From NCBI GenBank assembly GCA_963762255.1, contig CAVXKA010000001.1, positions 736,001 through 800,000 on the forward strand: 64,000 bases of DNA, in the 5' to 3' direction. The first letter of the stretch is position 1, and each line of letters opens with the position of its first letter. The stretch comes from Candidatus Eiseniibacteriota bacterium. GTDB taxonomy: Bacteria > Eisenbacteria > RBG-16-71-46 > JABDJR01. The position numbers and the translations under genes are program-made. Below, piece after piece: positions 42,042 to 56,019 of the stretch. Below the pieces are notes generated by a model, which was not told the DNA's origin, made no database searches, and saw nothing but the letters and a program-made list of their open reading frames with translations.

Positions 42042-43181
42042 TCAGCCCAGCACGCGCTTGAAGTAATCGAGAAGATTCTGCCCCAGGAACCCGGTGAGTT
42101 CCTCTTCGCGCCAGCCGCGCTCGAGGAGGCGGGCGGTGAGGTTAGGGAGCAGGCCCACGTGCTCGAGCCCCATCGGGAAGCGGCGCGCGCCGTCGAAGTC
42201 GGAGCCCAGCCCCACTGCGCCGGTGCCCATCACGCGTAGCGCGTGCTCGACGTGGTCCGCAGCGTCGTCGAGGGTGGCTAGCGACACGTTGCGGCAGTAG
42301 GTGTCGTAGTCCACGTCCGGGACCGCTCCCCAGAGCCGGTCTTCCAGTGGTGTGCCGGGTGGCGTGTAGCCGGTCTCCTGCTTCGCCCGTTCCCACCGTC
42401 CCGCCTCATCCACCAGAAACGGACTGACGAGGCAAACGCTCATCACCCCGCCCTTGTCCGCCAACGCGCGCATCTGCGCGTCGTCCAGGTTCCGGCGATG
42501 GTGATTGATGGCCTTCACCGAGGAGTGGCTCGCGAAGGGGGGCTTCTCGCCGTGGTCGAGCACGTCCCAGAAGGTGGCAGGAGCCACGTGCGAGACGTCC
42601 ACCGCCATGCCGATCTCCTCCATCGTTCCCAGCACGCGGCGGCCCAGGTCGTTGAGCCCTCCGTGCTGGGGGAGCTTCGGGTCCATCGGGCCGCAGCCAT
42701 CCGCCCAGTTGTTGGTGTTGTTCCATGTCAGCGTCATCGCACGGATGCCGCGGGCGTGGAAGCGGCGGAGCGTGTCGAGGGAGTCTTCAATGGCGTGGCC
42801 GCCCTCGATGCTCAGCATTCCGCCGAAGCGGCCGGCGCGCCAGGCGGCTTCGAGATCGCTCCCGCTCTTGCACGCGACGAGGCGGTCGGGGAATCGGCGC
42901 GTTTCCTCTTCGAACCGGTCGATCAGGCGATCCACTTCCGCTGCGGCGCGATCCGGGATGAACTTGGGCGAGACGTAGCAGGCGAAGACCTGCGCCTTGA
43001 GGCCGCCGGTCGCGATCTTCTCCCAGGAGAGGTGGACGTCGTCGGGGGCGCTCCCGAGATCGTAGCCGCGGTCAGCCATCTCGGAGACGGTGTCCACGTG
43101 GGAATCCAAAATGAAGGCGCGGGCGTGAAGCGCCCGCGCTCTCTCTATCGCCTGCTGGCTGGGGGGCTCTGCCGTTGTCAT
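42042..43181 (-). CDS. Membrane dipeptidase (peptidase M19)
   Basis: DSHVD, SIEGG, TLTWN, DVSH, SHS, GSDFDG. Confidence 0.92.
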   Translation of the reverse strand: MTTAEPPSQQAIERARALHARAFILDSHVDTVSEMADRGYDLGSAPDDVHLSWEKIATGGLKAQVFACYVSPKFIPDRAAAEVDRLIDRFEEETRRFPDRLVACKSGSDLEAAWRAGRFGGMLSIEGGHAIEDSLDTLRRFHARGIRAMTLTWNNTNNWADGCGPMDPKLPQHGGLNDLGRRVLGTMEEIGMAVDVSHVAPATFWDVLDHGEKPPFASHSSVKAINHHRRNLDDAQMRALADKGGVMSVCLVSPFLVDEAGRWERAKQETGYTPPGTPLEDRLWGAVPDVDYDTYCRNVSLATLDDAADHVEHALRVMGTGAVGLGSDFDGARRFPMGLEHVGLLPNLTARLLERGWREEELTGFLGQNLLDYFKRVLG

Positions 43182-43206
43182 CGCCCCATGTTAATCGGCG
43201 GCGCGG

Positions 43207-43875
43207 TCAGTCGTCGAGATAGTAGCCGTCGAGCACGATCACCGTGAGGGCGTTCGGGTGTCGGTGATACCGCAAGTGCTGGTGGTATTCGGACACCGAC
43301 CAGAACTCCATGTCGCAGTATGGGTCGTAGAACACGAATCCCTCGGGCGGGGCGTCGCCGAGTTCCAGGCGCAGGGCGAGGCCACCGAGGTAGATGCCCA
43401 GCCCGGCGTGGAAGTAGAACGGGTCGTCATGCACGTAGATCCGTTGGACGTCGCGATACCAGGGACGGACGACGTAACGAGGCGGCGGGCAGGCGCGCAG
43501 GTCGCGATGGCGCACGACGACGCGTTGCCGGCGATCGTAACGGCCGTGGTCGCGATCGTTGTCGCGGTCACGGATGACGATGCGATCGCGGTCTCTGTCG
43601 CGGTCGTTGTCCCGGCCGCGCACGGAGCGGTCGTCTTCGCGGCCTCGAACCGCGCGGTCGTCGCGGCGGTCTTTGCTGCGGTCGTTACTGCGGACGGCCC
43701 GGTCGCTCTTGCGCGCGCGTTCCGGCTTCTTGACGGTGCGCTCCTGGCGTTGGTCATTTTTCCGGCTGCGGCTGTTGTCGGCAGCCTGCGCCGCAGTCGT
43801 GCCGACAGTGCCGGCCAGGACCGCGAGGGCAATAGCGGTGAGCGCGACGCGTTTCAATGAGCTGGGGGTTTTCAT
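43207..43875 (-). CDS. Secreted Arg/Asp-rich protein with C-terminal C2H2-like (D-C-H-H) finger
   Basis: Signal peptide MKTPSSLKRVALTAIALAVLAG..AQA, RD-rich repeats, DPYCDMEFWSVSEYHQHLRYH; GAGGAG SD. Confidence 0.7.
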   Translation of the reverse strand: MKTPSSLKRVALTAIALAVLAGTVGTTAAQAADNSRSRKNDQRQERTVKKPERARKSDRAVRSNDRSKDRRDDRAVRGREDDRSVRGRDNDRDRDRDRIVIRDRDNDRDHGRYDRRQRVVVRHRDLRACPPPRYVVRPWYRDVQRIYVHDDPFYFHAGLGIYLGGLALRLELGDAPPEGFVFYDPYCDMEFWSVSEYHQHLRYHRHPNALTVIVLDGYYLDD

Positions 43876-43967
43876 GGCTCTGTCTCCTCTTCCGGGGCGC
43901 GCTTTGGCCGATGTGCGTGCTTGCCGGGCTTCGCGCGCCGGCCGGTGATGCAACGCAGGGCGTATAG

Positions 43968-43983
43968 AGCAGGAGACGTGCCA
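43968..43983 (-). promoter_or_regulatory. sigma54 (-24/-12) promoter
   Basis: Minus strand TGGCACGTCTCCTGCT with GG-N10-GC spacing, about 90 bp upstream of ATG 43875. Confidence 0.75.
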
Positions 43984-43991
43984 GTGGGGCG

Positions 43992-44021
43992 TGCTCACCC
44001 GGGTGATCACCCGGGTGAGCA
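43992..44021. repeat. Perfect 30-bp palindrome built from two tandem 12-bp palindromes
   Basis: TGC-TCACCCGGGTGA-TCACCCGGGTGA-GCA. Confidence 0.9.
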
Positions 44022-44407
44022 GGGGAAGTCCTTGTTTTGGTTGGACCTATGGGAGGCGGGGTGACGACTTTACCCGGGGAAAGTGGAGGGCGCCGCAGGC
44101 CTCCTGGTGTGTCGCGAGGGGAACAGGGTGGGGCGAGGGAGATCGGCCATGGTCCCTCATGCTCGTCCGGGCCTTCACGCGTTTCCATTCCGAGGCGATC
44201 GTCGCGCCTGCCGTCGCACGGCGTCCCCATCGCGTTACACGGACCCCGCTCGCAGGCTAACACCCGAGGCTGTCATCGCGAATCACCGGAGACGCCGGTG
44301 ACCCGAGAGGGGGGCGGGCGCGGCTATACTGGGCAGGAAGACAGCCCTGAGCGGAGCGATTCGCGGGTCAATGGGGCGTTAGCGCCTGGATAGTTAGGAG
44401 GGCAACG

Positions 44408-44812
44408 ATGGCCAGGATTACCGGAGTCGGCGGCGTATTCTTCAAGAGCAAAGGCGACAGCGCTGCACTGGCAGCGTGGTATCGGAAGCACCTGGGCATG
44501 TCGCTGGAAGACTTTGGTGGCGCCATTCTCAGATGGCCGGACGACAAGGCCGAGGACCGAGGCCTTACTGTGTGGCATGTCGCGGAGAAAGACAGCCAGT
44601 GGTTCAGCCCAAGCAATTCTTCCTTCATGATCAACTACCGGGTCGACAACCTCGGCGAGCTGCTGGAGCAGCTGCGCGCGGGAGGTGTGGAAATCATCCA
44701 AGGACCCGAATCGCACGAGAACGGCAAGTTTGCGTGGATCATGGATCCAGACGACAATAAGGTCGAGCTCTGGGAGCCGAAGGTCTGGGACGACAAGAAC
44801 AAAGGTGTCTGA
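44408..44812 (+). CDS. VOC/glyoxalase family protein (integron gene cassette)
   Basis: RITGVGGVFFK, MINYRV, GKFAWIMDPDDNKVELWEP; attC starts 7 bp after the stop. Confidence 0.9.
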   Translation: MARITGVGGVFFKSKGDSAALAAWYRKHLGMSLEDFGGAILRWPDDKAEDRGLTVWHVAEKDSQWFSPSNSSFMINYRVDNLGELLEQLRAGGVEIIQGPESHENGKFAWIMDPDDNKVELWEPKVWDDKNKGV

Positions 44813-44819
44813 GAGCGCC

Positions 44820-44883
44820 GCCTAACAGCCGGTTGCAGCGGACGGTCCGCTGCGCGGCCCGTCGCTGGGCCGGAGCGTTACCT
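44820..44883 (+). mobile_element. Integron attC site
   Basis: R'' GCCTAAC; imperfect inverted repeat CCGGTT[G]CAGCG[G]ACGG...CCGTCGCTGGGCCGG with extrahelical bases; ends in GTTA(CCT), a degenerate R'. Confidence 0.75.
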
Positions 44884-44991
44884 AGCCCGACTTCTGCGTC
44901 GCGACCTCGTGCGGGCTGCGCACCAGCAGTTGGTGAGCGAGAGGCGGCACCATCGGTCATCTGCACGCTAGAGGAGTTGACGGAGGAGTAG
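44879..44991 (+). pseudogene. Internally deleted PIN/VapC-like toxin remnant
   Basis: YLARLLRRDLVRAAHQQLVSE (resembles the family N-terminus SYL..PSRDL..AAHQQ) is joined out of frame to PSVICTLEELTEE* (resembles the family C-terminus PVICTPEEL). Confidence 0.6.
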
Positions 44992-44993
44992 CC

Positions 44994-45179
44994 CTGCGCC
45001 GAGATCCTATCGTCGAAGAAGTCCGCGTCATCCGCGACGAACTTGCCAAGCGTCACGGCTACGACATCGGCGCCATCGTCCGGGCCCTGCAGAAGGCGTC
45101 CGTGGACGATGGCCGGGAGCTGGTCTCGCTTCCGCTGAGGCCCTTGGCGGAAGAGAACGACGACCGCAAAGCAGGCTAG
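44994..45179 (+). CDS. Small DPIVEEVR-type protein (usual partner of this PIN family), CTG start
   Basis: GGAGGAG SD, 5 nt, then CTG-RRDPIVEEVRVIRDELAKRHGYDIGAIVRALQ...KAG*. Not in the ORF track. Confidence 0.55.
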   Translation: MRRDPIVEEVRVIRDELAKRHGYDIGAIVRALQKASVDDGRELVSLPLRPLAEENDDRKAG

Positions 45180-45310
45180 CGATCGCAGCCGGCCATTCGC
45201 GGTGGGCCTTGGGCCAAGGAGGCGGCGGCCTGACTTCCCGTCGGTTAGTAGGGTGTTCGCCGGACGTTTCCCTCGCGCCGACGCGGTTGCGATGAAAGGG
45301 GGCAAGAGCC

Positions 45311-45640
45311 ATGCAGTTCGGGACTCTGCCATTCACGACGACAGACTGGAAGGCGATGCCGACAACTGAGCACCCCGGGGAATCGGGGGTAGCTCTCTGG
45401 CGGACCGTCGAAGCGGGAGACTTGCGTGTTCGCATGGTGGACTACAGCCCGGGCTATGTGGCGGACCACTGGTGCAGCCGCGGGCATGTTCTCCTCGTGC
45501 TCGAGGGGGAATTGACCACTGAGCTGCAGGACGGCCGGGTTGTCACGCTCACTCCCGGCATGAGCTACCAAGTGGCTCACGATACCGCGCCTCACAAGTC
45601 GCGGACCGAGGTCGGAGCAAAGCTGTTCATAGTTGACTGA
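45311..45640 (+). CDS. DHCW-motif cupin protein
   Basis: YSPGYVADHWCSRGH, GMSYQV. Confidence 0.85.
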   Translation: MQFGTLPFTTTDWKAMPTTEHPGESGVALWRTVEAGDLRVRMVDYSPGYVADHWCSRGHVLLVLEGELTTELQDGRVVTLTPGMSYQVAHDTAPHKSRTEVGAKLFIVD

Positions 45641-45677
45641 TGAGGGGCAATTCGCTCGCGTTCAGGGGGTCCGGCCA

Positions 45678-46049
45678 ATGCCAAAGGTTGTCAACATCGA
45701 CGACTGCTTCAAAAGATTCGCGGACACGTTCTCACCCAAGATCGTGGCCGACCTGAATGGCCAGCACGTCAAGCTCGCACGGCTGGAGGGCGACAAGGTC
45801 CCGTGGCACACGCACGCGAAGGAAGACGAACTGTTCTACGTTCTGGACGGCACGCTCGACATCCAGGACGAGGGCGACATGTTCACGGTGCGCGCGGGCG
45901 AGTTCTACATCGTCCTCCGCGGGAGGAAGCACCGTATTGTTCCCCGCGGACACGTGAAGCTGATGCTGTTCGAGCCGGCGGGCATCGCTCACACCGGCGA
46001 CGCGCGGGCCGAGATCACGCGCGATTCGTGCGATCGGCTGGAGTTGTGA
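45678..46049 (+). CDS. Cupin domain protein
   Basis: SPKIVADLNGQHVKL, WHTHAKEDELF, MLFEP. Confidence 0.85.
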   Translation: MPKVVNIDDCFKRFADTFSPKIVADLNGQHVKLARLEGDKVPWHTHAKEDELFYVLDGTLDIQDEGDMFTVRAGEFYIVLRGRKHRIVPRGHVKLMLFEPAGIAHTGDARAEITRDSCDRLEL

Positions 46050-46083
46050 GGCGGGGGGCCTGGTGCCGCCCGGGAGATCAACG

Positions 46084-46407
46084 ATGCCCAAGACAAAGCT
46101 ACCGCCTGTGACCCCCGGTGAACTCCTGCTCGAGGAGTTCCTGAAGCCTATGGGGATCTCACGGTACCGACTGGCCAAGGAGATCGGGGTGCCTGCCCAG
46201 CGAATCGGTGAGATTGTTGCGGGCAGGCGGTCGATCACCGCAGACACCGACCTGCGCTTGTGCCGGTTCTTCGGCTTGTCGAACGGATACTGGCTTCGCG
46301 CTCAGGCCGCCTACGACACAGAAGTCGCAGCAGACGCGCTCTCGGATACGCTGAGGAAGATCAAGCCCTGGGCTGGTCCTGGTCGGCGGGCGGGTCACGC
46401 GGCTTGA
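46084..46407 (+). CDS. higA: HigA-family antitoxin (XRE HTH), no adjacent toxin
   Basis: PVTPGELLLEEFLKPMGISRYRLAK, ITADTDLRL, WLRAQ. Confidence 0.88.
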   Translation: MPKTKLPPVTPGELLLEEFLKPMGISRYRLAKEIGVPAQRIGEIVAGRRSITADTDLRLCRFFGLSNGYWLRAQAAYDTEVAADALSDTLRKIKPWAGPGRRAGHAA

Positions 46408-46727
46408 CTGTGTAGACTTCGGGGAGTTCGGGGCTGCTCTATGTCCTCAAGAAGTGGTGCGGTCCAGAAGCGACATCGGGACCGGGGGCATGGGCCGGGG
46501 CCGCCCCACAACCAGCTCTGAAGCCTTGTCCTCCCAATCGCTCCTGACTAGATTTCCGAGTCACGGACTTGATGGAGACCCTCTTGGCGTTTCGCCCAAG
46601 GCGATGCTCTTGACGAAAGGCCTGAACCGGACTTTAACTCGGAAGCCATCGACTTCCGAGTAGCTTCTGAGTTGGTTGGCGAGCTTCGACCATCGGGTGA
46701 TCGGAGGTTCCCGTGCAGAAGTCGCAG

Positions 46728-46946
46728 ATGCTGGCGAGCGTCGCGATCATACTGGGCGCACTGGCGCTGCTGCTGAGCTGGGGCGCGACGCTTGCCCTCC
46801 TCGATATCGTGCAGGGAAGAGAGCCCGACCTGTCACTCGAGTGGACCGTCGTCTGGATCGCCTTGCCGGTGATAACTCTGGCACAGGTCGTCTCCATCGC
46901 GGCGCTCGTGACGATGCAGGCATGCCGCACGAGGTCAACCAAATGA
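46728..46946 (+). CDS. Small two-TM hypothetical protein
   Basis: Hydrophobic ORF (ALLDIVQGREPDLSLEW); stop overlaps the next ATG. Confidence 0.5.
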   Translation: MLASVAIILGALALLLSWGATLALLDIVQGREPDLSLEWTVVWIALPVITLAQVVSIAALVTMQACRTRSTK

Positions 46947-47449
46947 GTGTGACGATCTCCCTTTCACAGGTAGTGGCGGGCCTTGAGATGGTCTCCACCG
47001 AATGCACCAGCTATCTCAATCGCCTGACCGGAGAGGTCATCTCCTGTTCGGATGATGAACTTGATGCGGCCGAGGACGAGTCGATGGAGGATGACGCGGA
47101 GCGTCCCGACTGGGAGCAGGGGCTGATCGAGCAAGCACGGGCGGTCATCGCTTCGGACGATTGGGTCGCCCTTCCCGATAGCTTCGAGATCCACGAACAC
47201 CGGATCATGGAGGATTTCGCCGAGTCCCAGTCCGGCAGCCTCCGGGACGAGCTGTTGCGAGCGCTTCGGGGAGCCGGTACCTTCCGCCGGTTCAAGAACG
47301 AGCTTGAGCGCCTGGGAATCCGTGACGAGTGGTTTCGTTATCGTCGGCAGGCCTTCGGGGGAATCGCACGGGATTGGCTGGAAGCCAACGAACTTCCGTT
47401 CGATCCGACGGACGATCCGGACGCGGATGGGGCGCCGGAGGGTAAGTAA
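46943..47449 (+). CDS. UPF0158 family protein
   Basis: YLNRLTGEV, LPDSFEIHEHRIMEDF, GAGTFRRFK, DWLEAN. Confidence 0.85.
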   Translation: MSVTISLSQVVAGLEMVSTECTSYLNRLTGEVISCSDDELDAAEDESMEDDAERPDWEQGLIEQARAVIASDDWVALPDSFEIHEHRIMEDFAESQSGSLRDELLRALRGAGTFRRFKNELERLGIRDEWFRYRRQAFGGIARDWLEANELPFDPTDDPDADGAPEGK

Positions 47450-47488
47450 GGCGATCCGTGCTGTCCCCTCACCCTGGGAGGTTTCACC

Positions 47489-48317
47489 ATGAATCGTGTG
47501 AGCGTGTCGATCGGTGCCATCCTGCTCTCACTTGCGACCCTCCCGATGCGGGCCGGCGCGCAGGAGCCCCCCAAGTCCCATCGTGACCTGGACTGGCAGG
47601 CGCCGCGCCGATGGGTGCACGTGGACAACGTCGACGCGCAGAAGGCATCGCTGTTCGTGGACGCCCGCCTGAGCTGGCTGGCAAAGTTGCGCACCGACGA
47701 CGGGCTCCTCGCCGACGGCAGGCCGCTCTTCTGGCATGCGCGATCTTCGAAGGCCGGCGAGACGTTCTTCTCGTTCTACCCCTTCCGCACATGGACGGAC
47801 CTCGACGCGCGCGGGCAAATGGCCACCGAGACGGTCAAGGTGGTCGGGGAAGACGCCTTGAAGGCATACGACTCGGGTGACGAAGCGCTGGTCTCCCCGC
47901 ATTACTCGCAGATCTGGTCGCGCGTGGCGGAGTACGACATCGCCGTGCCGGCCACCGAGTCCTTGACCGAACTCAGCGCGACGGCGGGCAGGCTCGAAGT
48001 TCATTCGGTAGACATAACCCGGTGGGAACGTCTTCGAGCAGTCGTGGAAGCAGATCACGGACGCGCTTGTCGCCGCCGAGTACCCCCTGGCCTGCCGCGC
48101 CTTCAGGAGCACCTACGGGAAGGGCGAGTACATGATCTGGTGGTTGGCGCCGGACTCCGCCGCGTACATGAGCGCCCCATCGATCCAGGATGTTCTCGAC
48201 GAGCAACTCGGCCCGCAGAAGAGCGCGGAACTCCGCGGGGCCCTCGATGCGGTCTTCCCCGTCGAGGAGTTCTATGAGGTCGAGCGCCGCGCGGACTTGT
48301 CCAACTTGGGCAGGTAA
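47489..48317 (+). pseudogene. Secreted two-domain hypothetical protein with a +1 frameshift near 48027
   Basis: Signal peptide ORF from 47489. Removing one A from TGGGAACGTC gives W-D-V-F-E-Q-S-W-K... continuing into ORF 48132..48317 (ERRADLSNLGR*). Confidence 0.7.
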
Positions 48318-48350
48318 CGCGACCCGCCGCGAGGCAGAAAGGAGATAACG

Positions 48351-48764
48351 ATGATGGAGACCGTCGAGGAAGGGATCCTGAGGCGCGTTAGGGAATTCGA
48401 AGCGGCCTACAACGCGGGAGATGCCGACGCTCTGGCGGCCATCTACGCCGTCGACGGTACGCACACCTATGCGCTTGGCTTCACGCACCGCGGACGGACG
48501 GAGATCGGGAAAGGGCTCAAGGAGCAGTTCGCCGGGCCGTTCAAGGGCACGAAGATGGCCATCACACCGCTCCGTATTCGCGCGCTTTCATCGAGCATTG
48601 GGGTCGAAGAGGCGTCCTTCACCCTCTCGGGTCTCAAGGGCGCGGATGGCGCGGTACTGCCGCCATTCGGCGGATTCTGTCTGGTCGTCTACCAGAAGGA
48701 CGGCGACACCTGGTACGTCGCCGCAGCTCAGTGCATGGTGCCGCCGCCGATGCCGCAGCAGTAG
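48351..48764 (+). CDS. NTF2-like (SnoaL/DUF4440) protein
   Basis: AAYNAGDADALAAIYA.DG, HRGRTEI, VYQKDGDTWY. Confidence 0.85.
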   Translation: MMETVEEGILRRVREFEAAYNAGDADALAAIYAVDGTHTYALGFTHRGRTEIGKGLKEQFAGPFKGTKMAITPLRIRALSSSIGVEEASFTLSGLKGADGAVLPPFGGFCLVVYQKDGDTWYVAAAQCMVPPPMPQQ

Positions 48765-48824
48765 CGATTCCAGGCAGGCCGGATTTGCCGACGGGTGGAT
48801 GTGGTCTTGATTCCCACCTCCGGC

Positions 48825-49235
48825 TCACTTCGCCGGATAGGGCACGAGATGGAGTTTGAGCCACTTCGCCAAGGCCGCCTCGGAAAGGTCGCCCGCCGCG
48901 AGCTTGAGCATCACCGCCACGACTTCGGTCTCCGGGGCCTCAAGGTCGTAATCATTCAGCCCTAGGAAAACGAGCATCGTCAGAAACGCGACTCTCTTGT
49001 TGCCGTCGCGATAGGGGTGATTCCGGGCCAGGCCGAAACCGTGGGTTGCCGCGAGGGTGGCTATGGACGCGTTGCGTCCGTAGACCCAGCGGTGCCGCGG
49101 CCGGGCGAGCGCGGATTCCAGAGCGTTCTCATCCCGGACCCCGAGAAGTCCGCCGTGCGTGCGGATGAGGTCCAAGCGGATAGCGTCCACGATCACTCGA
49201 TCCACCCACACCGGCTCGCGCCGCCCCTTGGGCAT
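48825..49235 (-). CDS. doc: Death-on-curing (Doc/Fic) toxin
   Basis: GVRDENALESALARP and Fic motif HPYRDGNKR. Confidence 0.9.
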   Translation of the reverse strand: MPKGRREPVWVDRVIVDAIRLDLIRTHGGLLGVRDENALESALARPRHRWVYGRNASIATLAATHGFGLARNHPYRDGNKRVAFLTMLVFLGLNDYDLEAPETEVVAVMLKLAAGDLSEAALAKWLKLHLVPYPAK

Positions 49236-49238
49236 GAT

Positions 49239-49466
49239 CTACTTCGCCAACTCCCGCAAGGCGTTCCGATACTTGCGTGCCCCTCGGGCCGCGATGGCCA
49301 GCGCCTTCTCGACCGTGGGGTCGTAGGGAGTCAGAAGGATGCCGCGGTCCGTCTCGATGGCGATGACGCGATCCCCCACCGCGAGGTGGAGTCGGTCCGC
49401 CATTTCCTTGGGCAGGGTGGCGCCTATGGACCCACCGACCTGACGCAGGACGACGTCTCGAGTCAT
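49239..49466 (-). CDS. AbrB/MazE-type antitoxin
   Basis: LRQVGGSIGATLPKE, LTPYDP, YRNALRELAK; immediately upstream of doc. Confidence 0.9.
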   Translation of the reverse strand: MTRDVVLRQVGGSIGATLPKEMADRLHLAVGDRVIAIETDRGILLTPYDPTVEKALAIAARGARKYRNALRELAK

Positions 49467-49506
49467 GCTTCCTCCGGGTTTGCCAGCACAGCCGCCGAAG
49501 GTGACA

Positions 49507-49524
49507 GTAGCACCAGAGTGCTAC
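49507..49524. promoter_or_regulatory. Putative TA operator inverted repeat
   Basis: GTAGCAC-CAGA-GTGCTAC, 40 bp upstream of the antitoxin start. Confidence 0.55.
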
Positions 49525-49543
49525 ATCTGCAAGCTCCAAGGTC

Positions 49544-49694
49544 TACAGCCGCGTGATCCGCACCTCGTCCTGGCCGTCGCGCACGTGCACGAGGTCGCCT
49601 CGGGGGGCGTGACGCAGTGCCTTGATGAGTCCCGTGGTGGAGAACCCCTCGCGGTCATGCGCGGCCAGGATCCGCGCCACCGACTTCACGGGCA
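49544..49694 (-). repeat. Diverged direct-repeat copy of the 3' 151 bp of gene 53638..54156
   Basis: Aligns without gaps to 53638-53788 with 13 mismatches by hand count; includes the stop codon. Confidence 0.92.
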
Positions 49695-49744
49695 TCTAGG
49701 TACATTAGCGATACCCGTTCAGGTTGCGGCTCTGCATGCGCCCC

Positions 49745-52700
49745 TCACTTTCCCGACTCAGGCGGGTTCGCCCCTCCCGCAAGCCTCACGCCTGCAGGTA
49801 CGGGCACTGGTATTGGGGGCGTGGAGTCGCCAGTGAGCAGCCTCCAGTTAGCGGCGGCACAGCGATGCAACCAATCGAGCATCCATGTGTTCAGTCGCTG
49901 GTGATTCGGGTTCGGTGAGTCGTTGGTCTCCCACCGCGCCAAGACTCGATCACCAATCTCACGACGGATAGTCATGCGCTTCCTGTGGTGCTCGACCAAG
50001 ACGCGGAGGCCGACAAAGAACAGTACCTGGTGGGCCGATAGGTGTCCGTCCCCGAGATCACCGGCAAGCTCACGCATGATGCCGTCGATCTGGGACTGTG
50101 CTGGCCAAAAACAAGAAGTCTGTGTCGCATCCAATCCGAGGAGAGCGCATGACCCGCACAGCTCCAAACGGCAGATCGCGCCTTCATCGTTATCGCAGCG
50201 AGAAAGGAAACGAATTAGCCCAGATGCCCTATGAACCAAAGCTTCAGAAGGGAAGTACTCGTGGACGAAGGCGGGCGTCCACGCCCACAGAGAGAATAGG
50301 GCAATTGCGATGTCGCGCGGCGGAAGCCTGATGTAGTTTCTCTCCAGCCACTCTCGGGAGGCAACCCTGTCCAGAAACTGACGGAGATCAGCCTCCGGCG
50401 TCGGTTCGATACTACGAAGAACAGTCGAGACGAGGCCCAATGAAAGCGACTGAGATCTCCATGCGGCGTCCGCGTCCTCCTGAATGAGTAAACATGACAG
50501 CTCCGATAGTATTTCCTGACAGTCACAGCTCCTGAGGAGCCCAGCGATGCGCGGAAACAACCTCGCGTCGCGCAGCACAGGCTCCAAGCGAGGGTGGTGG
50601 ACACCTTGAGCTCGAAATTCAACGGCGATTGTGTGGCGCACCAGATCTGCAAGTTCAGGAAACACGTCGACCGCGTACTGGAGGAATCCGTTGAGGCTAC
50701 CAGATTCAGTGTCCGACGCCGTTCGGACGACTTTGGCGCAGCTCCTATCGGCGGTCAATCCGTGACGGATTGCCTCAAATGTCTCGGGGAGCGCGATCGC
50801 TGCGTATTCTGCAAAATTTTGCAGATCACCGAGTCTCGAGTCTACCGCGGTCTGCACCAACTTCCCTTGGTTCGCCTCCACCAAGAACGCTGCGCGGATC
50901 GCCTCGAAGGCCGTCGGCATTTGCACTTCGGCGTACTCCAAGAAGTTGCGGAGAGCATGCAGGGGCGAGGCCACCGCCGTCTCTACCAATCGTCTCTGAT
51001 TGTCCGCCACAGAGAAGGCTACTCGAATCGCATCGAACGCCTCCGGCATCTTGACTTCCGCGTACTCCAAGAAGTTCCGGAGGGTATGCAGAGGCGAGGC
51101 CACCGTTGTCTCTACCAATCGCTTCTGATTGTCCGTCACGGAGAAGGCCGCTCGAATCGCACCGAACGCCTCCGGCATATTGGCTTCCACGTACTCCACG
51201 AAGTTCCGGAGAAAATGCAGCGGGGTCTCCAAGATGGCTTGGACGAGTCGTTCTTGGTTCTCCGCCAGTAAGAACGCAGCACTGATCGCATCGAACGCTT
51301 CCGGAATCTTGACTTCCACGTACTCCATGAAGTTCCGGAGAAAATGCAGCGGTGTTTCCAGGACAGCGCGGGCCAGCGCTTTCCGATTGGCCTCGGCGGA
51401 TAACGCGTCGGTGATTGAAGCATACGCTGCGGGTAGTCTAGCTTCAGCGTATTCCAAGAAATTGGGCAGGTATCCCAGGTGCGAATCCAACGCAGCCTGC
51501 CCGAGCTTTGGCAGGCGGGCCTCATCCGAGAGCGCGGTTATGATCACTTCATACGTTTTCGGCAAGTGGACTTCTGTGTATTCCAGGAGGTCCCGCATCT
51601 CTCCAAGTGGGATGTCGAACACCGCCTGAGCCAAGTTGGCGGACCCACTCAAACGCCGGTCCAACGCCGTTTGCGAGAGCACCGATAACTCCAGTAACTG
51701 TTGACACTCGTCGTGCAGATGAGACACCCCGAATGTGATGAGGCGACCGAATGCGTCCTCGGCGTTGAATGCCGCCAAGAGGATGCGCTTGGCCGCGTCA
51801 GCGTCACCCTGCACGCGGCGCACGCGACTGGCCATGAGACAGGCGAAGCGCGGATTGCGCCGGCCGACTTCACATTTGTGGTCAAGGGAGGACGTGGTCG
51901 GTGTGGCCGCCGCCCACAAGAGTCGTCCCATGCCAGGATGATGGAAGCAGTAGCGGTGGAATTGACCATCACGGCCGTGGGCGGAATGCCAGACAAGTCC
52001 ATGTTGCACGCTCATCTCGAACTGGTCGGGATAAGGCAGTGCCTCCGTGGGAACGTGCAACTCCAAGTCGGCGCACGCCGCCAGGGCAATCAGGTTCTCG
52101 CGCTCTCGAGCGTCAAGCGGATACCCAGGTCGGTCGAGGTACTCCTCGCGAATGTAGTCGGCAGCGTCTGCTTCTGCCAGTCCATACTCGCCGCGCAGGA
52201 TTCTGGAAAGCTTGCGACGCGCGGCGAGGCTAAACGCCACCAGATCCCCGCCAAAGACTCTGAGCCACGTGTCCAGCACAGAGTCAGGGAGCAGTGGTCG
52301 CGACGGTACGCCCCCCCCCCGCCGCGCGATCAGTCGCTGAAGCACTCCGACCAAGTCGGCTGACTCTACCTCGAGCGTCAAAGCTGTGCGGCGCAAATCT
52401 GCGAGTGGTGATTGTCGACCGCGCCGATCCGGTCCCTTCTCTGTCAATCGTCCTTGAAACAGGAGGCGGACGGGGCAGCCGTGGTCTCGCCACGCGAGGT
52501 AGATGCTTGCGGCAAGTCGCTCGGCGACGTGGATATTGTCTATGATTACGAGCGTCTCCCTCCCGCTCAATTGAGCGACTGCGGCCAGAGCAGCCTGGCA
52601 GGACACAGCCGTCTCCGGGTCATCGTCGGCCTCAGCGAGGTCGCAATAGAATGCTCGACTGGGACCGAGCTCCGAGTCGAAGGCGAGTAGGAACGCAAGG

Positions 52701-53374
52701 GTGGTCTTACCCGATGCCCCCTTACCAAGAACGCAGGCGAATCGGCCTGTCTTCAGCGCTGTCTCCACCGAACTTGCAAGCGAGGGTCGGTGAACCCGGT
52801 GTTCCCTGTATTCCCGCTGCGATGGGCTGAAGGCATTTGGGTCACTATCATCGCCGAAACGATGCGATGCGTCTAAGACACGGATGAACGGACTGATGGC
52901 CTGGGCCGCAGGCGAACGTCTCCTGAGAAGCCAATTGTGAAGATCAGTGGCAAGGCATGTCGCTAACTGATCGGGCGTGCTGAAATCGGTGACTGTGAGA
53001 TTGCTACGGAGCTCTTCCTTCAATGCAGCGAGCCGCTGCGCCTTGTTCGGATCGAACTCTCGTTGCTCGGGGGTGATAGCCGCATCCAGCTTGATGTAGA
53101 TATAGCAGGGCAGCCCCATCTTCCTCGCGCGCCGGTACTCCTGCTCAGTGATGCCGGAACTGTAACTGCCGCCGAAAATGCCTACGTAGAGCTGGCTGCA
53201 ATCGACCTCATCTAGAGATGTCTGGGATGTGTCACCTCCGCGGCTGCCAAAGTACTCCATACCGTGGAACTTGGTCTCATGAAATCGCTGCAGGACCTTC
53301 TCGACCGCTAGACGCTCCGCCTGGAGCTCCCGCCAGGTCGAGCTGACGAAGACACGAATGTCAACCTGAGCCAT
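49745..53374 (-). CDS. DUF4062 - STAND-like P-loop NTPase - 8 x 43-aa helical repeat protein (NLR-like, putative antiphage)
   Basis: RVFVSSTWRELQAER...SGITEQEYRRA (DUF4062), Walker A GKGASGKTT, Walker B LVIIDNIH, and tandem repeats. Visibly more AT-rich than flanking genes. Confidence 0.8.
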   Translation of the reverse strand: MAQVDIRVFVSSTWRELQAERLAVEKVLQRFHETKFHGMEYFGSRGGDTSQTSLDEVDCSQLYVGIFGGSYSSGITEQEYRRARKMGLPCYIYIKLDAAITPEQREFDPNKAQRLAALKEELRSNLTVTDFSTPDQLATCLATDLHNWLLRRRSPAAQAISPFIRVLDASHRFGDDSDPNAFSPSQREYREHRVHRPSLASSVETALKTGRFACVLGKGASGKTTLAFLLAFDSELGPSRAFYCDLAEADDDPETAVSCQAALAAVAQLSGRETLVIIDNIHVAERLAASIYLAWRDHGCPVRLLFQGRLTEKGPDRRGRQSPLADLRRTALTLEVESADLVGVLQRLIARRGGGVPSRPLLPDSVLDTWLRVFGGDLVAFSLAARRKLSRILRGEYGLAEADAADYIREEYLDRPGYPLDARERENLIALAACADLELHVPTEALPYPDQFEMSVQHGLVWHSAHGRDGQFHRYCFHHPGMGRLLWAAATPTTSSLDHKCEVGRRNPRFACLMASRVRRVQGDADAAKRILLAAFNAEDAFGRLITFGVSHLHDECQQLLELSVLSQTALDRRLSGSANLAQAVFDIPLGEMRDLLEYTEVHLPKTYEVIITALSDEARLPKLGQAALDSHLGYLPNFLEYAEARLPAAYASITDALSAEANRKALARAVLETPLHFLRNFMEYVEVKIPEAFDAISAAFLLAENQERLVQAILETPLHFLRNFVEYVEANMPEAFGAIRAAFSVTDNQKRLVETTVASPLHTLRNFLEYAEVKMPEAFDAIRVAFSVADNQRRLVETAVASPLHALRNFLEYAEVQMPTAFEAIRAAFLVEANQGKLVQTAVDSRLGDLQNFAEYAAIALPETFEAIRHGLTADRSCAKVVRTASDTESGSLNGFLQYAVDVFPELADLVRHTIAVEFRAQGVHHPRLEPVLRDARLFPRIAGLLRSCDCQEILSELSCLLIQEDADAAWRSQSLSLGLVSTVLRSIEPTPEADLRQFLDRVASREWLERNYIRLPPRDIAIALFSLWAWTPAFVHEYFPSEALVHRASGLIRFLSRCDNDEGAICRLELCGSCALLGLDATQTSCFWPAQSQIDGIMRELAGDLGDGHLSAHQVLFFVGLRVLVEHHRKRMTIRREIGDRVLARWETNDSPNPNHQRLNTWMLDWLHRCAAANWRLLTGDSTPPIPVPVPAGVRLAGGANPPESGK
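50610..51634 (-). repeat. Intragenic 129-bp (43-aa) tandem repeats, about 8 copies
   Basis: For example LVETTVASPLHTLRNFLEYAEVKMPEAFDAIRVAFSVADNQRR / LVETAVASPLHALRNFLEYAEVQMPTAFEAIRAAFLVEANQGK. Confidence 0.9.
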
Positions 53375-53637
53375 GCACTCCACCGATCTCCTCACCGCGC
53401 ACCGCATGGTGATAGTAATAACTGAAGATCGCTTCGCGCGCACGCCTGCCGCGACAGCGCATCCGCATGACGGTCAGAGCGTCAGCAAATTGTACCGTAT
53501 CACACATTTTTGCGCAGCCGCGTGATGAAGCGCCACCACGCGGAGCGCCAGCGAAGTGCCACCGCGGCAGGAGAATTCGGGACCGGCGGCAGCTCCCGGG
53601 GTGATCTCGCCCGTGAGCCGATCCGCGAGCCTCGGCG

Positions 53638-54156
53638 CTACAACCTCGTGATGCGCACCTCGTCCTGGCCGTCGCGCACGTGCACGAGGTCGCCTCGGGG
53701 GGCGTGACGCAGTGCCTTGATCACTTCCATGGTGGAGAACCCCTGGCCGTCATGGGCGGCCAGGATCCGCGCCACCGACTTGAGCGGCACGCGGCAGTGC
53801 ACCTGCTCCTCCCCCTCCTTCACGTCGACGGTGATGCACTTGCCCTCCTTGCGCACCAACACCGACTCGTCGCCCTCCACGACCTCGGCGATGACGAAGT
53901 CGGGGCAGCGCGAGAGTTCCTCGGCGAGGCGCACCCCGATCTCCTGATACTGGCCGAGATCCTCGCACTTCACGTAGCGTGCCTCGTCGGGCGCGAGCGA
54001 CAGCGCGGCCTGGGCCACGATCAGCGGGACCGGGATCACGATGTGCGTCCCGTCAGGCCCACCCTCGCGCACATCTACGAGCAGAACGCCGGTGGCGCCC
54101 AGGAAGAGCGCGGAGGCGAGGAACGGCGTGGCTATGATGGCTCCGACCTTCAGCAT
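53638..54156 (-). CDS. Hypothetical membrane-anchored/exported protein
   Basis: N-terminal hydrophobic segment; paralog-like to 54192..54749 (GDLVHVRDGQDEVRI vs GEIVRVEDGDDTVRI). Confidence 0.7.
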   Translation of the reverse strand: MLKVGAIIATPFLASALFLGATGVLLVDVREGGPDGTHIVIPVPLIVAQAALSLAPDEARYVKCEDLGQYQEIGVRLAEELSRCPDFVIAEVVEGDESVLVRKEGKCITVDVKEGEEQVHCRVPLKSVARILAAHDGQGFSTMEVIKALRHAPRGDLVHVRDGQDEVRITRL

Positions 54157-54191
54157 GACATGCCCCCACTTCTACGGCCCCGAAGCCGCGA

Positions 54192-54749
54192 TCAGTCGAT
54201 CCAGATGCGGACTGTGTCGTCGCCGTCTTCGACGCGAACGATCTCGCCCTTTTTCATATCCTTCATCTTGCCGACGGCGGCTGCGACGTCCAGCTCGTTG
54301 CCCTCGCCGCTCAGGAGCGCGTCCACCACGGCGACCGGCAGCTCGATGCGCACCTTCTCGCCCTCGTCGCCGTCCACGTTCACGAACACGCTCTCGCCCC
54401 TGCGGGAGACGCTCACCGTCTCGTCGCCGTCCTTGACGGTCACGAACTCGGCGTCGCCCGCGCGGCGGACCTCGGCCCACATCTCGCGCATGTCCTCGAG
54501 GGTGAAGTCCTCGTCCTCGACGCGGAAGTGCGAGTGGCCGCCCGACTTCTCTTGGGCCATCTTGAGCGCGACGTCGGCCAGGGAGATGGGCAGGTTCACG
54601 TTCACGGTGGCCCCGTCACCGTCGTGCTCGCGCACTTCGATGTGGATCCAGGGACCGTTGGAGGCCTCGTCCTTCTGCCCCGCGAACGCGAGGGCGGGAA
54701 GGGCCAGGGCCAGGGTCAGGAATGCGATGCAGAGGATTCTCTTGTTCAT
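54192..54749 (-). CDS. Hypothetical secreted protein with internal duplication
   Basis: Signal peptide MNKRILCIAFLTLALALPALAFA; repeated V.V.LP..L/VVD and V.V.DGD.TV units. Confidence 0.75.
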   Translation of the reverse strand: MNKRILCIAFLTLALALPALAFAGQKDEASNGPWIHIEVREHDGDGATVNVNLPISLADVALKMAQEKSGGHSHFRVEDEDFTLEDMREMWAEVRRAGDAEFVTVKDGDETVSVSRRGESVFVNVDGDEGEKVRIELPVAVVDALLSGEGNELDVAAAVGKMKDMKKGEIVRVEDGDDTVRIWID

Positions 54750-54766
54750 GGCCGGCTCCCGTTGAG

Positions 54767-54860
54767 GTAGACCCCCACCGGCCCGCGAGGGGTTGCAGGG
54801 CGCGGTGCGTTTTCTGAGGATGGCTCCCGGGTCTACGCAGAGGGACCGGCCCGGGTTGCA
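54767..54860 (-). promoter_or_regulatory. Two tandem ECF-type promoters
   Basis: Minus strand TGCAACCC-N14-GCGTAGAC (54860-54831) and TGCAACCC-N15-GGGTCTAC (54797-54767), resembling AAC/CGT ECF promoters. Confidence 0.55.
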
Positions 54861-54929
54861 GGGGGTTCGAGGGGAGCCGGCCGACGGGGGGTTGCTGGGG
54901 GTTCGGCTGGGACCGGCCGGCCGGGGGGC

Positions 54930-55373
54930 CTATGCGCCCAGCAGGGTCCTCACCGCCGCCTGGACGTCCTTTCCGTCCACGCGGGAGCCGTGCTCGCCCA
55001 TGACTACCTTCATGACCTTGCCCATATCCTTTGCCGAGGTCGCGCCGGTCGTCTCGATGGCCTCCTTCACGATCTCCAGGAGCGCGGGGCCCGAGAGCAT
55101 CTGGGGCAGGTAGACGCTCAGCATCTCGGCTTCCTTGGCTTCGGTGTCTGCCAGGTCGGCCCGGTTGCCCGCTCGGTACGCCTCGACCGCCTCTTCGCGC
55201 TTCTTCACCGCTTTGCGCAGAACCTGGACCACGTCCTCGTCGGTCAGGTCGCGCATCTTCTCGATGCGGACGTTCTTGATCTCGGACAGCGTCATGCGCA
55301 ATACGCTCAGGCGCAGCGTGTCGCGGGCTTTCATGGCGGTCTTGACGTCTTCGTTGAGGCGGTCGATCAGCAT
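54930..55373 (-). CDS. GatB/YqeY domain protein
   Basis: DVKTAMKARD..RLSVLRM, YLPQML, KDMGKVM, RVDGK. Confidence 0.92.
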   Translation of the reverse strand: MLIDRLNEDVKTAMKARDTLRLSVLRMTLSEIKNVRIEKMRDLTDEDVVQVLRKAVKKREEAVEAYRAGNRADLADTEAKEAEMLSVYLPQMLSGPALLEIVKEAIETTGATSAKDMGKVMKVVMGEHGSRVDGKDVQAAVRTLLGA

Positions 55374-55479
55374 GGCGACTCCGTTTCACTTGGGTCGGGG
55401 ACGGGGGCCGAGGCCGCTCAACGCTACCAGAGAGGCGTGGCCGGGGACAATCCGCACGAGCCGGTGCTAGTCTCGCGGC

Positions 55480-56019
55480 ATGACACGCGAGCGCAATTTC
55501 GGCGAGAAGCGATTGGTCGTGATGCCGGGCGACATCACCGAGCAGCGCGTGGACGCGATCGTCAACGCCGCCAACGAGTGGCTCGTCCACGGGGGCGGGG
55601 TCGCAGGCGCGATCTCCCGCGCTGCCGGGCCGCGGCTCCAGGAAGAGTCGAGCCCGAAGGCGCCCATTCGCGCCGGCGAGGCGGTGGCTACCTCTGGCTG
55701 GCGGCTGCCTGCGAAGCACGTGATCCACACCGTGGGGCCGCGAGGCGGGGACGAGGACGGCGACGTCGTGCTTTTGAGCGCGGTCGAGAGTTCGTTGCGC
55801 GTGGCGGAGGAGAACGGCGTGCGCTCGATCGCGTTCCCTGCGATCTCGGCAGGCATCTTCGGATACCCGCTCGAATCGGTGGCGCGGATTCTGGTGGGAG
55901 CGGCCGCGGCGTGGCTTCGCGATCCCGCGCACGCGATCGAGGAGATCCGATTCGTGCTCTTCGATGCGCGCACGTTGCGCGCCTTCGAGGCGGCGCTGGA
56001 CGCGGAAACCGCGGACTGA
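55480..56019 (+). CDS. Macro domain protein (ADP-ribose hydrolase family)
   Basis: GDIT, DAIVNAAN, GGGVAGAI, IHTVGP, FPAISAGIFGYP. Confidence 0.92.
   Translation: MTRERNFGEKRLVVMPGDITEQRVDAIVNAANEWLVHGGGVAGAISRAAGPRLQEESSPKAPIRAGEAVATSGWRLPAKHVIHTVGPRGGDEDGDVVLLSAVESSLRVAEENGVRSIAFPAISAGIFGYPLESVARILVGAAAAWLRDPAHAIEEIRFVLFDARTLRAFEAALDAETAD

Follow-up and report, generated by a model that had tools for sequence, protein, structure and literature searches.

The window, a stretch of 64,000 nt from a genome of the Candidatus Eiseniibacteriota (G000, C1:736001-800000), carries on its minus strand the gene P0001 (53638..54156), whose translation gives a membrane protein of 172 aa that is hydrophobic over a stretch at its N-terminus. 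P0001 matched no family in Pfam or NCBIfam, and its neighbours in a protein atlas are hypothetical proteins. Orthologues are present in all seven family genomes, the one in the sister species (G001) being 81% identical, and a metagenome scan with P0001 returned three loci only, at 42-51% identity, none of them a close relative. The 3' end of this gene occurs twice. Copy B (53638..53789, minus strand) comprises the last 50 codons and the stop of P0001, runs on without a break into the remainder of the gene, and is the true 3' end of conserved P0001. Copy A (49543..49695, minus strand) is an orphan fragment that consists of an ATG, 49 further codons and a TAG, with an in-frame TAG directly upstream. 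The same gene end was matched three times in its own genome (P0001 itself, the fragment and a paralogue at 29%) and twice in each of the seven family genomes (orthologue and paralogue), which contain no third fragment.

A repeat search places the two copies in a gap-free direct repeat of 152 nt (49543-49694 and 53638-53789 of the window; 91% identical, spacing 4095 nt), and self-BLAST of the whole genome recovers the same pair at 91.4% over 152 nt, equivalent to 13 mismatches. Both searches agree with the gap-free, 13-mismatch direct repeats of a preliminary description of this DNA, whose start for copy A (49544) is off by one base. Read on the minus strand, the two copies code for a C-terminus ending in GDLVHVRDGQDEVRITRL followed by TAG; translation and alignment thus reproduce the earlier reading that the copies share a C-terminus and that their similarity stops at the stop codon. 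The opposite edge of the repeat is a start-like codon, ATG in copy A (49695-49693) and GTG in copy B.

The 13 mismatches are clustered: ten fall within the first 71 nt and three within the last 16 nt, and the 68 nt between them are free of mismatches. A maximum-gap test on their spacing gives p = 0.004. Such clustering is expected around a crossover or conversion tract. A Nei-Gojobori count assigns seven differences to the synonymous and six to the nonsynonymous class, so that the preliminary emphasis on synonymous positions was right for only about half of them. The three differences past the 68-nt identical core are all synonymous, and dN is 0 over the last 26 codons of copy A. Polarised by the sister species, copy B is ancestral at ten of the 13 sites, copy A at two and neither at one; identity to the sister-species gene is 117/155 for copy A and 124/155 for copy B, and the copies are 91% identical to each other. 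Five residues of copy A (V125, R137, T143, G144 and L145) are absent from all nine aligned full-length sequences, and two copy A-specific residues fall at nearly invariant positions (L125 and G137 in the full-length sequences).

Between the copies there is a single long ORF with a family match (49745..53443, minus strand), as the preliminary description had it when it listed a STAND gene as the only gene between the repeats. Its likely true start is M24 at 53374, and the database form has 1209 aa. This cargo gene encodes an NLR/Avs-like protein with DUF4062 at residues 30-106, a Walker A motif (GKGASGKTT) and helical repeats of ~43 aa. DUF4062 (PF13271) was detected with Pfam at E 7.9e-13 (48.9 bits against a cutoff of 24.7), and the TIR/DUF4062 of KpSwz in the PDB gave a weak match (E 0.055). 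The NTPase has a visible Walker A motif and scores below the Pfam cutoffs (nSTAND_NTPase5, 17.9 bits against 34; AAA_14, 20.4 against 27); homologues of the cargo bear NB-ARC, NACHT or AAA_16. Tandem units of 129 nt lie at 50856-51352.

The cargo differs from its flanks in base composition (GC 0.57-0.64 vs 0.67-0.68), is matched over its full length in none of 205 other genomes from the class, and has its nearest homologues, 44-46% identical, in other phyla. The outside origin supposed at first sight is borne out by these three results, and the cargo is a foreign gene. A scan of genome contigs with the cargo protein gave 279 pattern matches of which none was confirmed, and one with the cargo alignment gave 14 distant loci, again from other phyla; a plasmid collection searched with the protein yielded four partial matches only, at < 38% identity. 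With its N-terminal DUF4062, central P-loop NTPase and C-terminal repeats, the cargo resembles Avs/NLR-like proteins with a DUF4062 ('NIR') NADase effector, an architecture that appears in passages of a recent preprint (bioRxiv 10.64898/2026.09.04.749371); DUF4062 is described as a TIR-like NADase in an account of the 'Swarozyc' system. It differs from these proteins in that PADLOC matched 0 families, in that its NTPase lies below every Pfam cutoff, in that its repeats are built of a 43-aa unit with no Pfam family, and in that its homologues are only 44-46% identical. The most likely identity of the cargo is that of an NLR/Avs-like protein acting against phage, with DUF4062 as its NADase effector.

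The spacer from the P0001 stop to the cargo ORF (53444..53637, minus strand) consists of ~100 nt of GC-rich sequence and then, ahead of the cargo gene, an AT-rich stretch, and by alignment and shuffle test it has no similarity to the sequence following copy A. On the far side of copy A, 76 nt past it, lies a gene for an AbrB/MazE-type antitoxin (doc_partner; 49239..49466, minus strand) with a GGAGG ribosome-binding site; the product matches Pfam MazE_antitoxin at E 3.4e-10 and reaches 55.0 bits with TIGR02609, just below the cutoff of 55.9. It is paired with a Doc/Fic-family toxin of the toxin-antitoxin type (48825..49235, minus strand; Pfam Fic E 3.5e-13; TIGR01550 52.4 bits, above the cutoff of 38.65). 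The spacer between copy A and the antitoxin contains a palindrome with a 7-bp stem and folds with z = -0.49. A scan of 49200-54300 for promoters and terminators found no promoter-like site and five terminator-like sites against 3.0 expected, Rfam had 0 matches over 43000-55500, and 38000-60000 contains no tRNA. The idea that copy A is kept as the holder of a toxin-antitoxin promoter was considered and dropped.

Beyond the toxin lies an older layer of the island (43616..48824), in which Pfam finds a glyoxalase, two cupins, an XRE-type HTH protein and a SnoaL-like protein alongside three family-less ORFs. This layer has no counterpart at the same site in relatives and no DNA match in the sister species, and synteny with three relatives (G003, G004 and G007) returns only at ~43470. 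From the P0001 orthologue to the next shared gene these three carry 2.2-3.5 kb of differing content, compared with 10.2 kb here. Judged by this comparison with relatives, the 4.1-kb unit is only the newest, P0001-proximal layer of a ~10-kb variable island (43.5-53.6 kb). The locus had been described as an integrase-free insertion of 4.1 kb; the absence of a recombinase stands, but the unit is not self-contained, being the proximal layer of an island that extends to ~43.5 kb.

We looked for features of mobile elements within and around the island. In the genome PF00589 has 13 matches and PF00239 four, none of them in the window, and the nearest on the contig are > 160 kb away; the scanned island ORFs contain no recombinase or transposase family and no other gene of a mobile genetic element. 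As far as these families and ORFs go, the locus has no recombinase, as first reported. Inverted alignment of the insert ends revealed no terminal inverted repeats (471/500 shuffles scored at least as well), and there is no integron attC near the locus, the genome's ~100-nt CTAAC...GTTAG repeats being found by self-BLAST only at C1:1538871-1556030. An empty site was sought in the sister species, whose contigs end at both island edges, the one with the P0001 orthologue in a poly-C run. The sequence downstream of this orthologue was compared with that downstream of copy A and of copy B, and neither comparison was significant (11/300 and 283/300 shuffles as good, respectively). One public sequencing run, with 6% of the words, gave three unitigs of 151 nt (51112-51262, 52446-52596 and 53473-53623) that are confined to the cargo or the spacer and contain no joints, both repeat junctions lying outside them.

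The same architecture recurs at two further places in this genome. Self-BLAST gave 195 repeat pairs, of which 18 were viewed and three loci were studied in detail; many of the remaining pairs come from the integron-like array or from paralogues in tandem. At locus 2 (C2:1376198-1380241) a 702-nt repeat with 12 mismatches and one indel, made up of the 3' end of a 527-aa gene, the intergenic spacer and 47 nt of the next gene, brackets a GT2 glycosyltransferase gene and a 427-aa ORF of GC 0.59. The empty site exists in the sister species, where contig C5 runs directly from flank to flank. At locus 3 (C1:1252725-1262118) the bracketing sequences are two 5' fragments of a gene for a glycerophosphotransferase (88-94% identical to that gene), and the cargo between them forms two layers, one of which contains a TIR_2 protein; here the two core genes are adjacent on sister-species contig C314. 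At both loci the cargo lies between a core-gene fragment and the adjacent core gene, without an integrase, and the fragments contain internal deletions. The anchor sequences of the three loci are unrelated, and no motif is common to their cargo ends (0/28 pairs reach z > 3), a combination that argues against one dedicated site-specific system. The recurrence of the same scar type at two other sites of the genome points to ordinary recombination rather than to a new mobile element.

The analysis shows the anatomy of the locus, a cargo of foreign origin, a lack of recombinases, a position within an island, and two recurrences elsewhere in the genome for which empty sites exist. The explanation that we favour, with about even confidence, is an integrase-independent, homology-anchored capture at the boundary of a variable island, in which the resident gene end was displaced and the repeats are the scar. 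In the route we infer, a related lineage, diverged by ~10-15%, would have donated DNA in which the end of that lineage's P0001 allele preceded the cargo gene, and this piece would have recombined with the resident P0001 through the homologous gene end. The far end would be an illegitimate joint inside the resident gene, at about codon 122/123; alternatively, the whole piece may have entered as a circle by a single Campbell-type crossover. The outcome would be an intact P0001 ending in copy B, then the cargo, then the displaced resident end (copy A) still joined to the antitoxin-Doc pair; on this route copy B would be the donor's. The fragment of the anchor gene does sit between the cargo and the antitoxin-Doc pair, as homology-anchored displacement requires. 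The 68-nt core free of mismatches could mark where the crossover or the heteroduplex lay, or it could stem from gene conversion at a later time. A simple Campbell event predicts even divergence along the repeat, and the identical core therefore needs an extra assumption, either heteroduplex repair or later conversion. The suggestion in the preliminary description that the gene end served as a homology anchor gains weight from loci 2 and 3, which have the same architecture and empty sites in the sister species. Against capture it counts that an element integrating with a replacement gene end would leave the same signature (similarity stopping exactly at the stop codon, 152 nt with 13 mismatches), that the polarisation by the sister species equally fits decay of copy A after a purely local duplication, and that the searches yielded no donor allele and, for this locus itself, no empty site or alternative cargo.

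A possible, though unlikely, alternative is a site-specific element of the e14/icd type that brought its own target-gene 3' end as attP and whose integrase was lost by deletion or acted in trans. Cis-mobilizable elements (CIMEs), which are defined by the att sites of a known ICE or IME and on which an integrase acts in trans, are already described as att-flanked elements without an integrase; the unit resembles them in being short, bounded by direct repeats and devoid of an integrase of its own. The shape also fits the icd/icdC pair at the e14 prophage of E. coli K-12, which serves as a precedent in the sections of PMC13626634 that deal with it. By our own count the icd 3' end and icdC share 165 nt, gap-free, with 12 mismatches (here 152 nt with 13) and with similarity ending just past the stop. 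In both cases, then, the last ~50 codons form a gap-free direct repeat (~92% identical for e14) with similarity ending at the stop, the target gene remains whole, and beyond the insert there is an orphan end. The three synonymous differences past the core, too, are as expected if a tail borne by the element must stay functional. However, e14 is 15 kb long with intE, xisE and phage genes, and the insert here spans 3.9 kb with a single gene and without a recombinase; e14 mismatches are spread along the repeat, and here there is a 68-nt identical core. Against an element of this type stand the lack of PF00589 and PF00239 matches in the window and of any other mobile-element gene in the island, and the cargo relatives at 14 loci in other phyla, where a P0001 fragment was found in 0/14 at E < 0.01 and the flanking repeats are not consistent (two weak pairs). 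The repeats of up to 702 nt at the other two loci, which span a spacer and two gene parts, are moreover unlike att sites. An integrase acting in trans, as had been proposed, finds no support: neither a partner element nor a second att or further gene-end copy was found in the own genome or the seven family genomes, and the cargo ends of the three loci share no motif.

Rather unlikely, in our judgement, is a local origin, in which P0001 was duplicated in tandem (partly or fully), the cargo inserted between the copies or removed most of the second one, and copy A decayed with conversion preserving its centre. Copy A is indeed nearer to copy B than either is to the sister-species gene, ten of the 13 changes fall on the branch of copy A, including the two at nearly invariant residues, and at locus 2 eight of the 12 mismatches lie in the outermost 58 nt, an edge effect expected from conversion between repeats. 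The maximum-gap test rejects uniform decay, so that this reading must add conversion, and the branch of copy A has ~5 nonsynonymous and 5 synonymous changes against ~3:1 under neutrality, which is weak evidence against it. None of the seven family genomes has a recent second copy of P0001, and a local origin leaves unexplained why foreign DNA sits exactly between the copies at three separate loci.

Copy A could also be a working small gene, a stand-alone C-terminal module of 50 residues whose transcript might include the toxin-antitoxin pair; its frame is open and begins with ATG, the source assembly calls it as a gene, and dN is 0 in its last 26 codons. We consider this very improbable: among 5.8 billion proteins copy A has no stand-alone relative, its single match being itself as the sole member of its cluster, it has no Shine-Dalgarno-like sequence whereas the next gene has GGAGG, and it is substituted at nearly invariant positions. 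An assembly artefact that concatenated two strain haplotypes with differing content after P0001 is hardly credible, for although the sister-species MAG breaks at both island edges, which means that the region is hard to assemble, and a 98% identical protein variant in public data means that strain variation is real, the genome consists of three contigs totalling 4.1 Mb, the upstream edge of copy A is an abrupt non-homologous joint rather than a join within shared sequence, and loci 2 and 3 have the same structure, their fragments carrying internal deletions.

Homology-anchored capture of the kind we favour has counterparts elsewhere. In the part of PMC5361080 concerned with mechanism, homology-facilitated illegitimate recombination that leaves displaced gene remnants is proposed, as a proposal and not a demonstration, for Vibrio T6SS and Rhs arrays. 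The V. cholerae T6SS effector-immunity and Rhs displacement arrays, as portrayed there, share with our locus a conserved anchor gene, new cargo beside it and an older neighbour and remnant pushed downstream, as well as the lack of an integrase and layers that can be stacked (PMC5361080), of which locus 3 has two. They differ in that, by that description, those toxin/immunity loci are polymorphic and vary in a portion of the anchor gene itself, whereas at our locus a small conserved protein without assigned function is the anchor and a complete, unrelated gene is the cargo. The P. aeruginosa cDHS likewise hold, as characterised in the relevant section of PMC10250203, variable defence-type cargo of lower GC between core genes with no recognisable mobile element, and the authors suggest transfer via flanking homology. 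Exchange through two flanks, however, leaves no scar, whereas the duplicated gene end left here implies that homology was confined to one side or that there was a single crossover. A homology-anchored scar is a known kind of event and involves no new principle.

A wider reading, which we regard as a long shot, is that duplicated core-gene ends constitute a general integrase-free cassette system in this uncultured lineage. If so, a RecA crossover within the repeat would free the cargo with one repeat as a circle, and one crossover would suffice to put this circle into any relative possessing the anchor gene. Because all differences past the core are synonymous, the recombinant P0001 would encode the present protein, and loss of the cassette would be scarless at the protein level. 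The three loci, with their defence-type (DUF4062-NTPase, TIR_2) or surface-glycan cargo, would then be snapshots of one process.

How defence genes reach 'hotspots' without mobile-element genes is an open practical question, and exchange through flanking homology is usually only assumed because it leaves no trace. A displaced gene end, in contrast, would be a lasting scar from which a one-sided event or a single crossover can be read. With three scars of this kind, this genome would offer concrete natural examples, and for two of them the sister species has the empty site. The cargo at P0001, a diverged DUF4062-NTPase protein with a putative sensor of 43-aa repeats, is a candidate for NADase-based phage defence.

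Read 5' to 3' on the minus strand, the locus begins with a YqeY-family gene (55373-54930) and a gene of 185 aa (54749-54192), followed by P0001 (54156-53638), a conserved gene of 172 aa with a hydrophobic segment at its N-terminus and no family match in Pfam or NCBIfam. A spacer of 194 nt separates P0001 from a long ORF (53443-49745), the cargo, and 49 nt further on lies an ORF of 50 codons (49695-49543), itself 76 nt ahead of genes for an AbrB/MazE-type antitoxin (49466-49239) and a Doc toxin (49235-48825). The 3'-terminal 152 nt of P0001 (53638-53789, copy B) align with the 50-codon ORF (49543-49694, copy A) without gaps and with 13 mismatches, at a spacing of 4095 nt; the likeness ends at the TAG stop on one edge and, on the other, at what resembles a start codon (ATG in A, GTG in B). 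The preliminary description had the repeat right in its 13 mismatches, lack of gaps and end at the stop, and placed the start of copy A one base off. P0001 and the gene preceding it (53638-54156 and 54192-54749) are old tandem paralogues, 29% identical and both terminating in the motif V.V.DG.D.VRI, and the pair is retained across the whole family and several other families of the class. The 76-nt spacer ahead of the antitoxin gene (49467-49542, minus strand) contains a perfect palindrome with a 7-bp stem, GTAGCAC-tctg-GTGCTAC, which may be the operator of the antitoxin; the fold of this spacer is not unusual (z = -0.49).

The cargo ORF carries a DUF4062 domain at residues 30-106 (E 7.9e-13) and a Walker A motif; its matches to nSTAND_NTPase5 and AAA_14 stay below threshold, and PADLOC gives none. 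We consider it a diverged DUF4062-NTPase gene and a candidate for defence. Two preprints of 2026 describe DUF4062 as an effector with TIR-like NADase activity in defence systems, Avs/NLR-like ones among them (10.64898/2026.09.04.749371; 10.64898/2026.05.01.722283). The C-terminus has 43-aa repeats, visible as four tandem 129-nt units (50856-51352) that are 75-86% identical and encode helical repeats with no match among Pfam repeat families. GC is 0.57-0.64 in the cargo gene, 0.67-0.68 alongside it and 0.66 in the window. Among 206 genomes of the class the gene is present in this one (G000) only, one other having just a 143-residue match to the DUF4062 region, and its closest homologues are 44-46% identical across 55-66% of the length. 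Fourteen distant loci were found in Verrucomicrobiota, Pseudomonadota, several acidobacterial groups, Planctomycetia and others, and the gene's GC is below that of its locus in 10 of them. From the low GC, the single occurrence in the class and the distant homologues in other phyla we conclude that the cargo was acquired horizontally.

Comparison with three family members (G004, G007 and G003) shows that the variable segment is larger than the 4.1-kb unit. In these genomes, other content of 2.2, 2.8 and 3.5 kb, respectively, separates the P0001 orthologue from shared genes whose counterparts in the window start only at ~43470 (a small conserved protein, then an M19 dipeptidase); since synteny returns only there, 43.5-53.6 kb of the window constitutes an island of ~10 kb. 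Its distal part encodes a glyoxalase, two cupins, an XRE regulator, a SnoaL-like protein, three family-less ORFs and the toxin-antitoxin pair. The nearest genome with context for the locus is 20% diverged and fragmented. In the sister species G001 (75% complete, and the sole other species of the genus compared), in which no island DNA was found, contigs end at both island edges, one of them in a poly-C run 144 nt past the gene. The preliminary description, whose observation is confirmed and whose interpretation is supported in part, had proposed a 4.1-kb insertion of captured cargo without a recombinase: an outside origin of the cargo stands, as does the lack of a tyrosine or serine recombinase in the window (the nearest of 13 tyrosine and 4 serine matches in the genome are >160 kb away), and the insertion proves to be only part of the island.

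Terminal inverted repeats are absent from the insert, and at the locus there is no tRNA gene, no Rfam match and no attC-like repeat, though an integron-like array exists elsewhere in the genome. The most serious alternative, a site-specific element that has lost its integrase and resembles the E. coli K-12 prophage e14, draws on the shape of the repeat. The e14-borne icd end and the displaced icdC align over 165 nt, gap-free and with 12 mismatches by direct count, and their similarity stops just past the stop codon, the same shape as here (for background, PMC13626634). G000 has no further copy of the P0001 end, each of seven family genomes has only the orthologue and the old paralogue, and P0001 fragments are absent beside the cargo relatives elsewhere; we regard such an element as possible, if unlikely. 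Outside the window, in the array at C1:1537634-1556030 (regions L049:7635-20000 and L050), a ~100-nt repeat that starts CTAAC and ends GTTAG occurs at least 17 times across 17 kb, at distances of 0.5-3.2 kb, next to a partial tyrosine-recombinase match (C1:1537940-1538101); the array resembles an attC-bearing chromosomal integron. At C1:602695-631475 (with region L047), several matches to tyrosine recombinases (C1:607976-613187) and one to serine recombinases (C1:623200) lie within direct repeats of 150-173 nt (87-92%; at C1:602695, 604767 and 631304). No tRNA sits by the first repeats, and the arrangement is probably one conventional integrative element or several nested together.

Whole-genome self-BLAST gave 195 nearby repeat pairs, 18 of which were inspected, and two further loci were examined in detail. 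At locus 2 (C2:1376198-1380241; L045:3199-7242), a 702-nt repeat with 12 mismatches (8 within the outermost 58 nt) and one indel takes in the last ~560 nt of a 527-aa gene, the spacer beside it and 47 nt of a GtrA-like gene. Between its copies lie 2.6 kb of cargo (GC 0.59) that hold a GT2 glycosyltransferase gene as well as an ORF of 427 aa; the copy that is a fragment has an internal deletion, and in G001 both flanks adjoin on one contig (C5), an empty site. At locus 3 (C1:1252725-1262118; L074:2726-12119), the 5' part of a glycerophosphotransferase gene recurs as two fragments (88-94% identity with the intact gene; one is internally deleted) that separate two cargo layers. One layer holds a TIR_2 protein together with a GDSL lipase and a methyltransferase, the other a metallophosphoesterase. 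The first fragment is still attached to its original upstream gene, and in G001 (contig C314) the two core genes adjoin. No recombinase families were found among the ORFs scanned in either cargo, and across all three loci the anchors are unrelated and the cargo ends share no motif. Elsewhere, a 144-nt gap-free direct repeat in ORFs (L048:3049-3192 and 6256-6399; C2:1260049-1263398) has 9 mismatches at a distance of 3.2 kb.

General homology-driven capture, a reading in which our confidence is about even, best fits the combination of three unrelated anchors, repeats (up to 702 nt) that extend across intergenic DNA, layers that are stacked and contain decayed fragments, and the lack of a recombinase. 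Incoming DNA of a diverged relative would pair with a resident core gene; its fixation could follow from an illegitimate join, with a piece of the resident gene left in place, or from one crossover involving a circular form. The same mechanism has been proposed for Rhs displacement and for the T6SS immunity arrays of Vibrio (PMC5361080). Copy A is contiguous with the toxin-antitoxin pair, the sole basis for suggesting that the cargo may have arrived after that layer.

The differences between the copies bear on the origin of copy A. When the 13 differences are polarised by the G001 orthologue, its state is found in B at 10, in A at 2 and in neither at 1. Seven are synonymous and six nonsynonymous (dS 0.20, dN 0.058), the latter all within the first 23 codons. 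Ten fall in the first 71 nt, the following 68 nt are free of them, and three, all synonymous, fall in the last 16 nt; only 0.4% of random placements yield a mismatch-free gap that long. Protein constraint alone does not explain this identical core, because 17 differences, 12 of them synonymous, separate the G001 orthologue from copy B over the last 26 codons. We read copy A as a probable non-functional relic whose centre would owe its identity with B to the founding crossover or else to gene conversion at a later stage. Conversion also figures in a rival that we consider improbable, local duplication followed by decay. That copy A is a functional 50-aa gene is very improbable: it is annotated as a gene in the source assembly, yet it is the sole member of its cluster and has no stand-alone relative in a collection of 5.8 billion proteins. 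A search for longer relatives returned eight proteins of 141-172 aa, in whose alignment V125, R137, T143, G144 and L145 are exclusive to copy A, L125 and G137 being nearly invariant in the P0001 family; copy A also has no Shine-Dalgarno-like sequence, and the antitoxin 76 nt downstream has GGAGG. An assembly artefact is a barely credible explanation of the arrangement.

A perfect block of 68 nt should be long enough for homologous recombination. A crossover within it would remove the cargo and restore a P0001 encoding exactly the present protein, because the three differences downstream of the block are synonymous, and the RecA-mediated loss or amplification of the cargo via the repeats that the preliminary description raised is therefore plausible. 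The finding is a further instance of an already known event, a gene-remnant scar from recombinational island accretion; a general RecA-driven cassette system in the lineage seems quite doubtful. The homology-driven reading bears on how integrase-free core defence hotspots get filled (PMC10250203).
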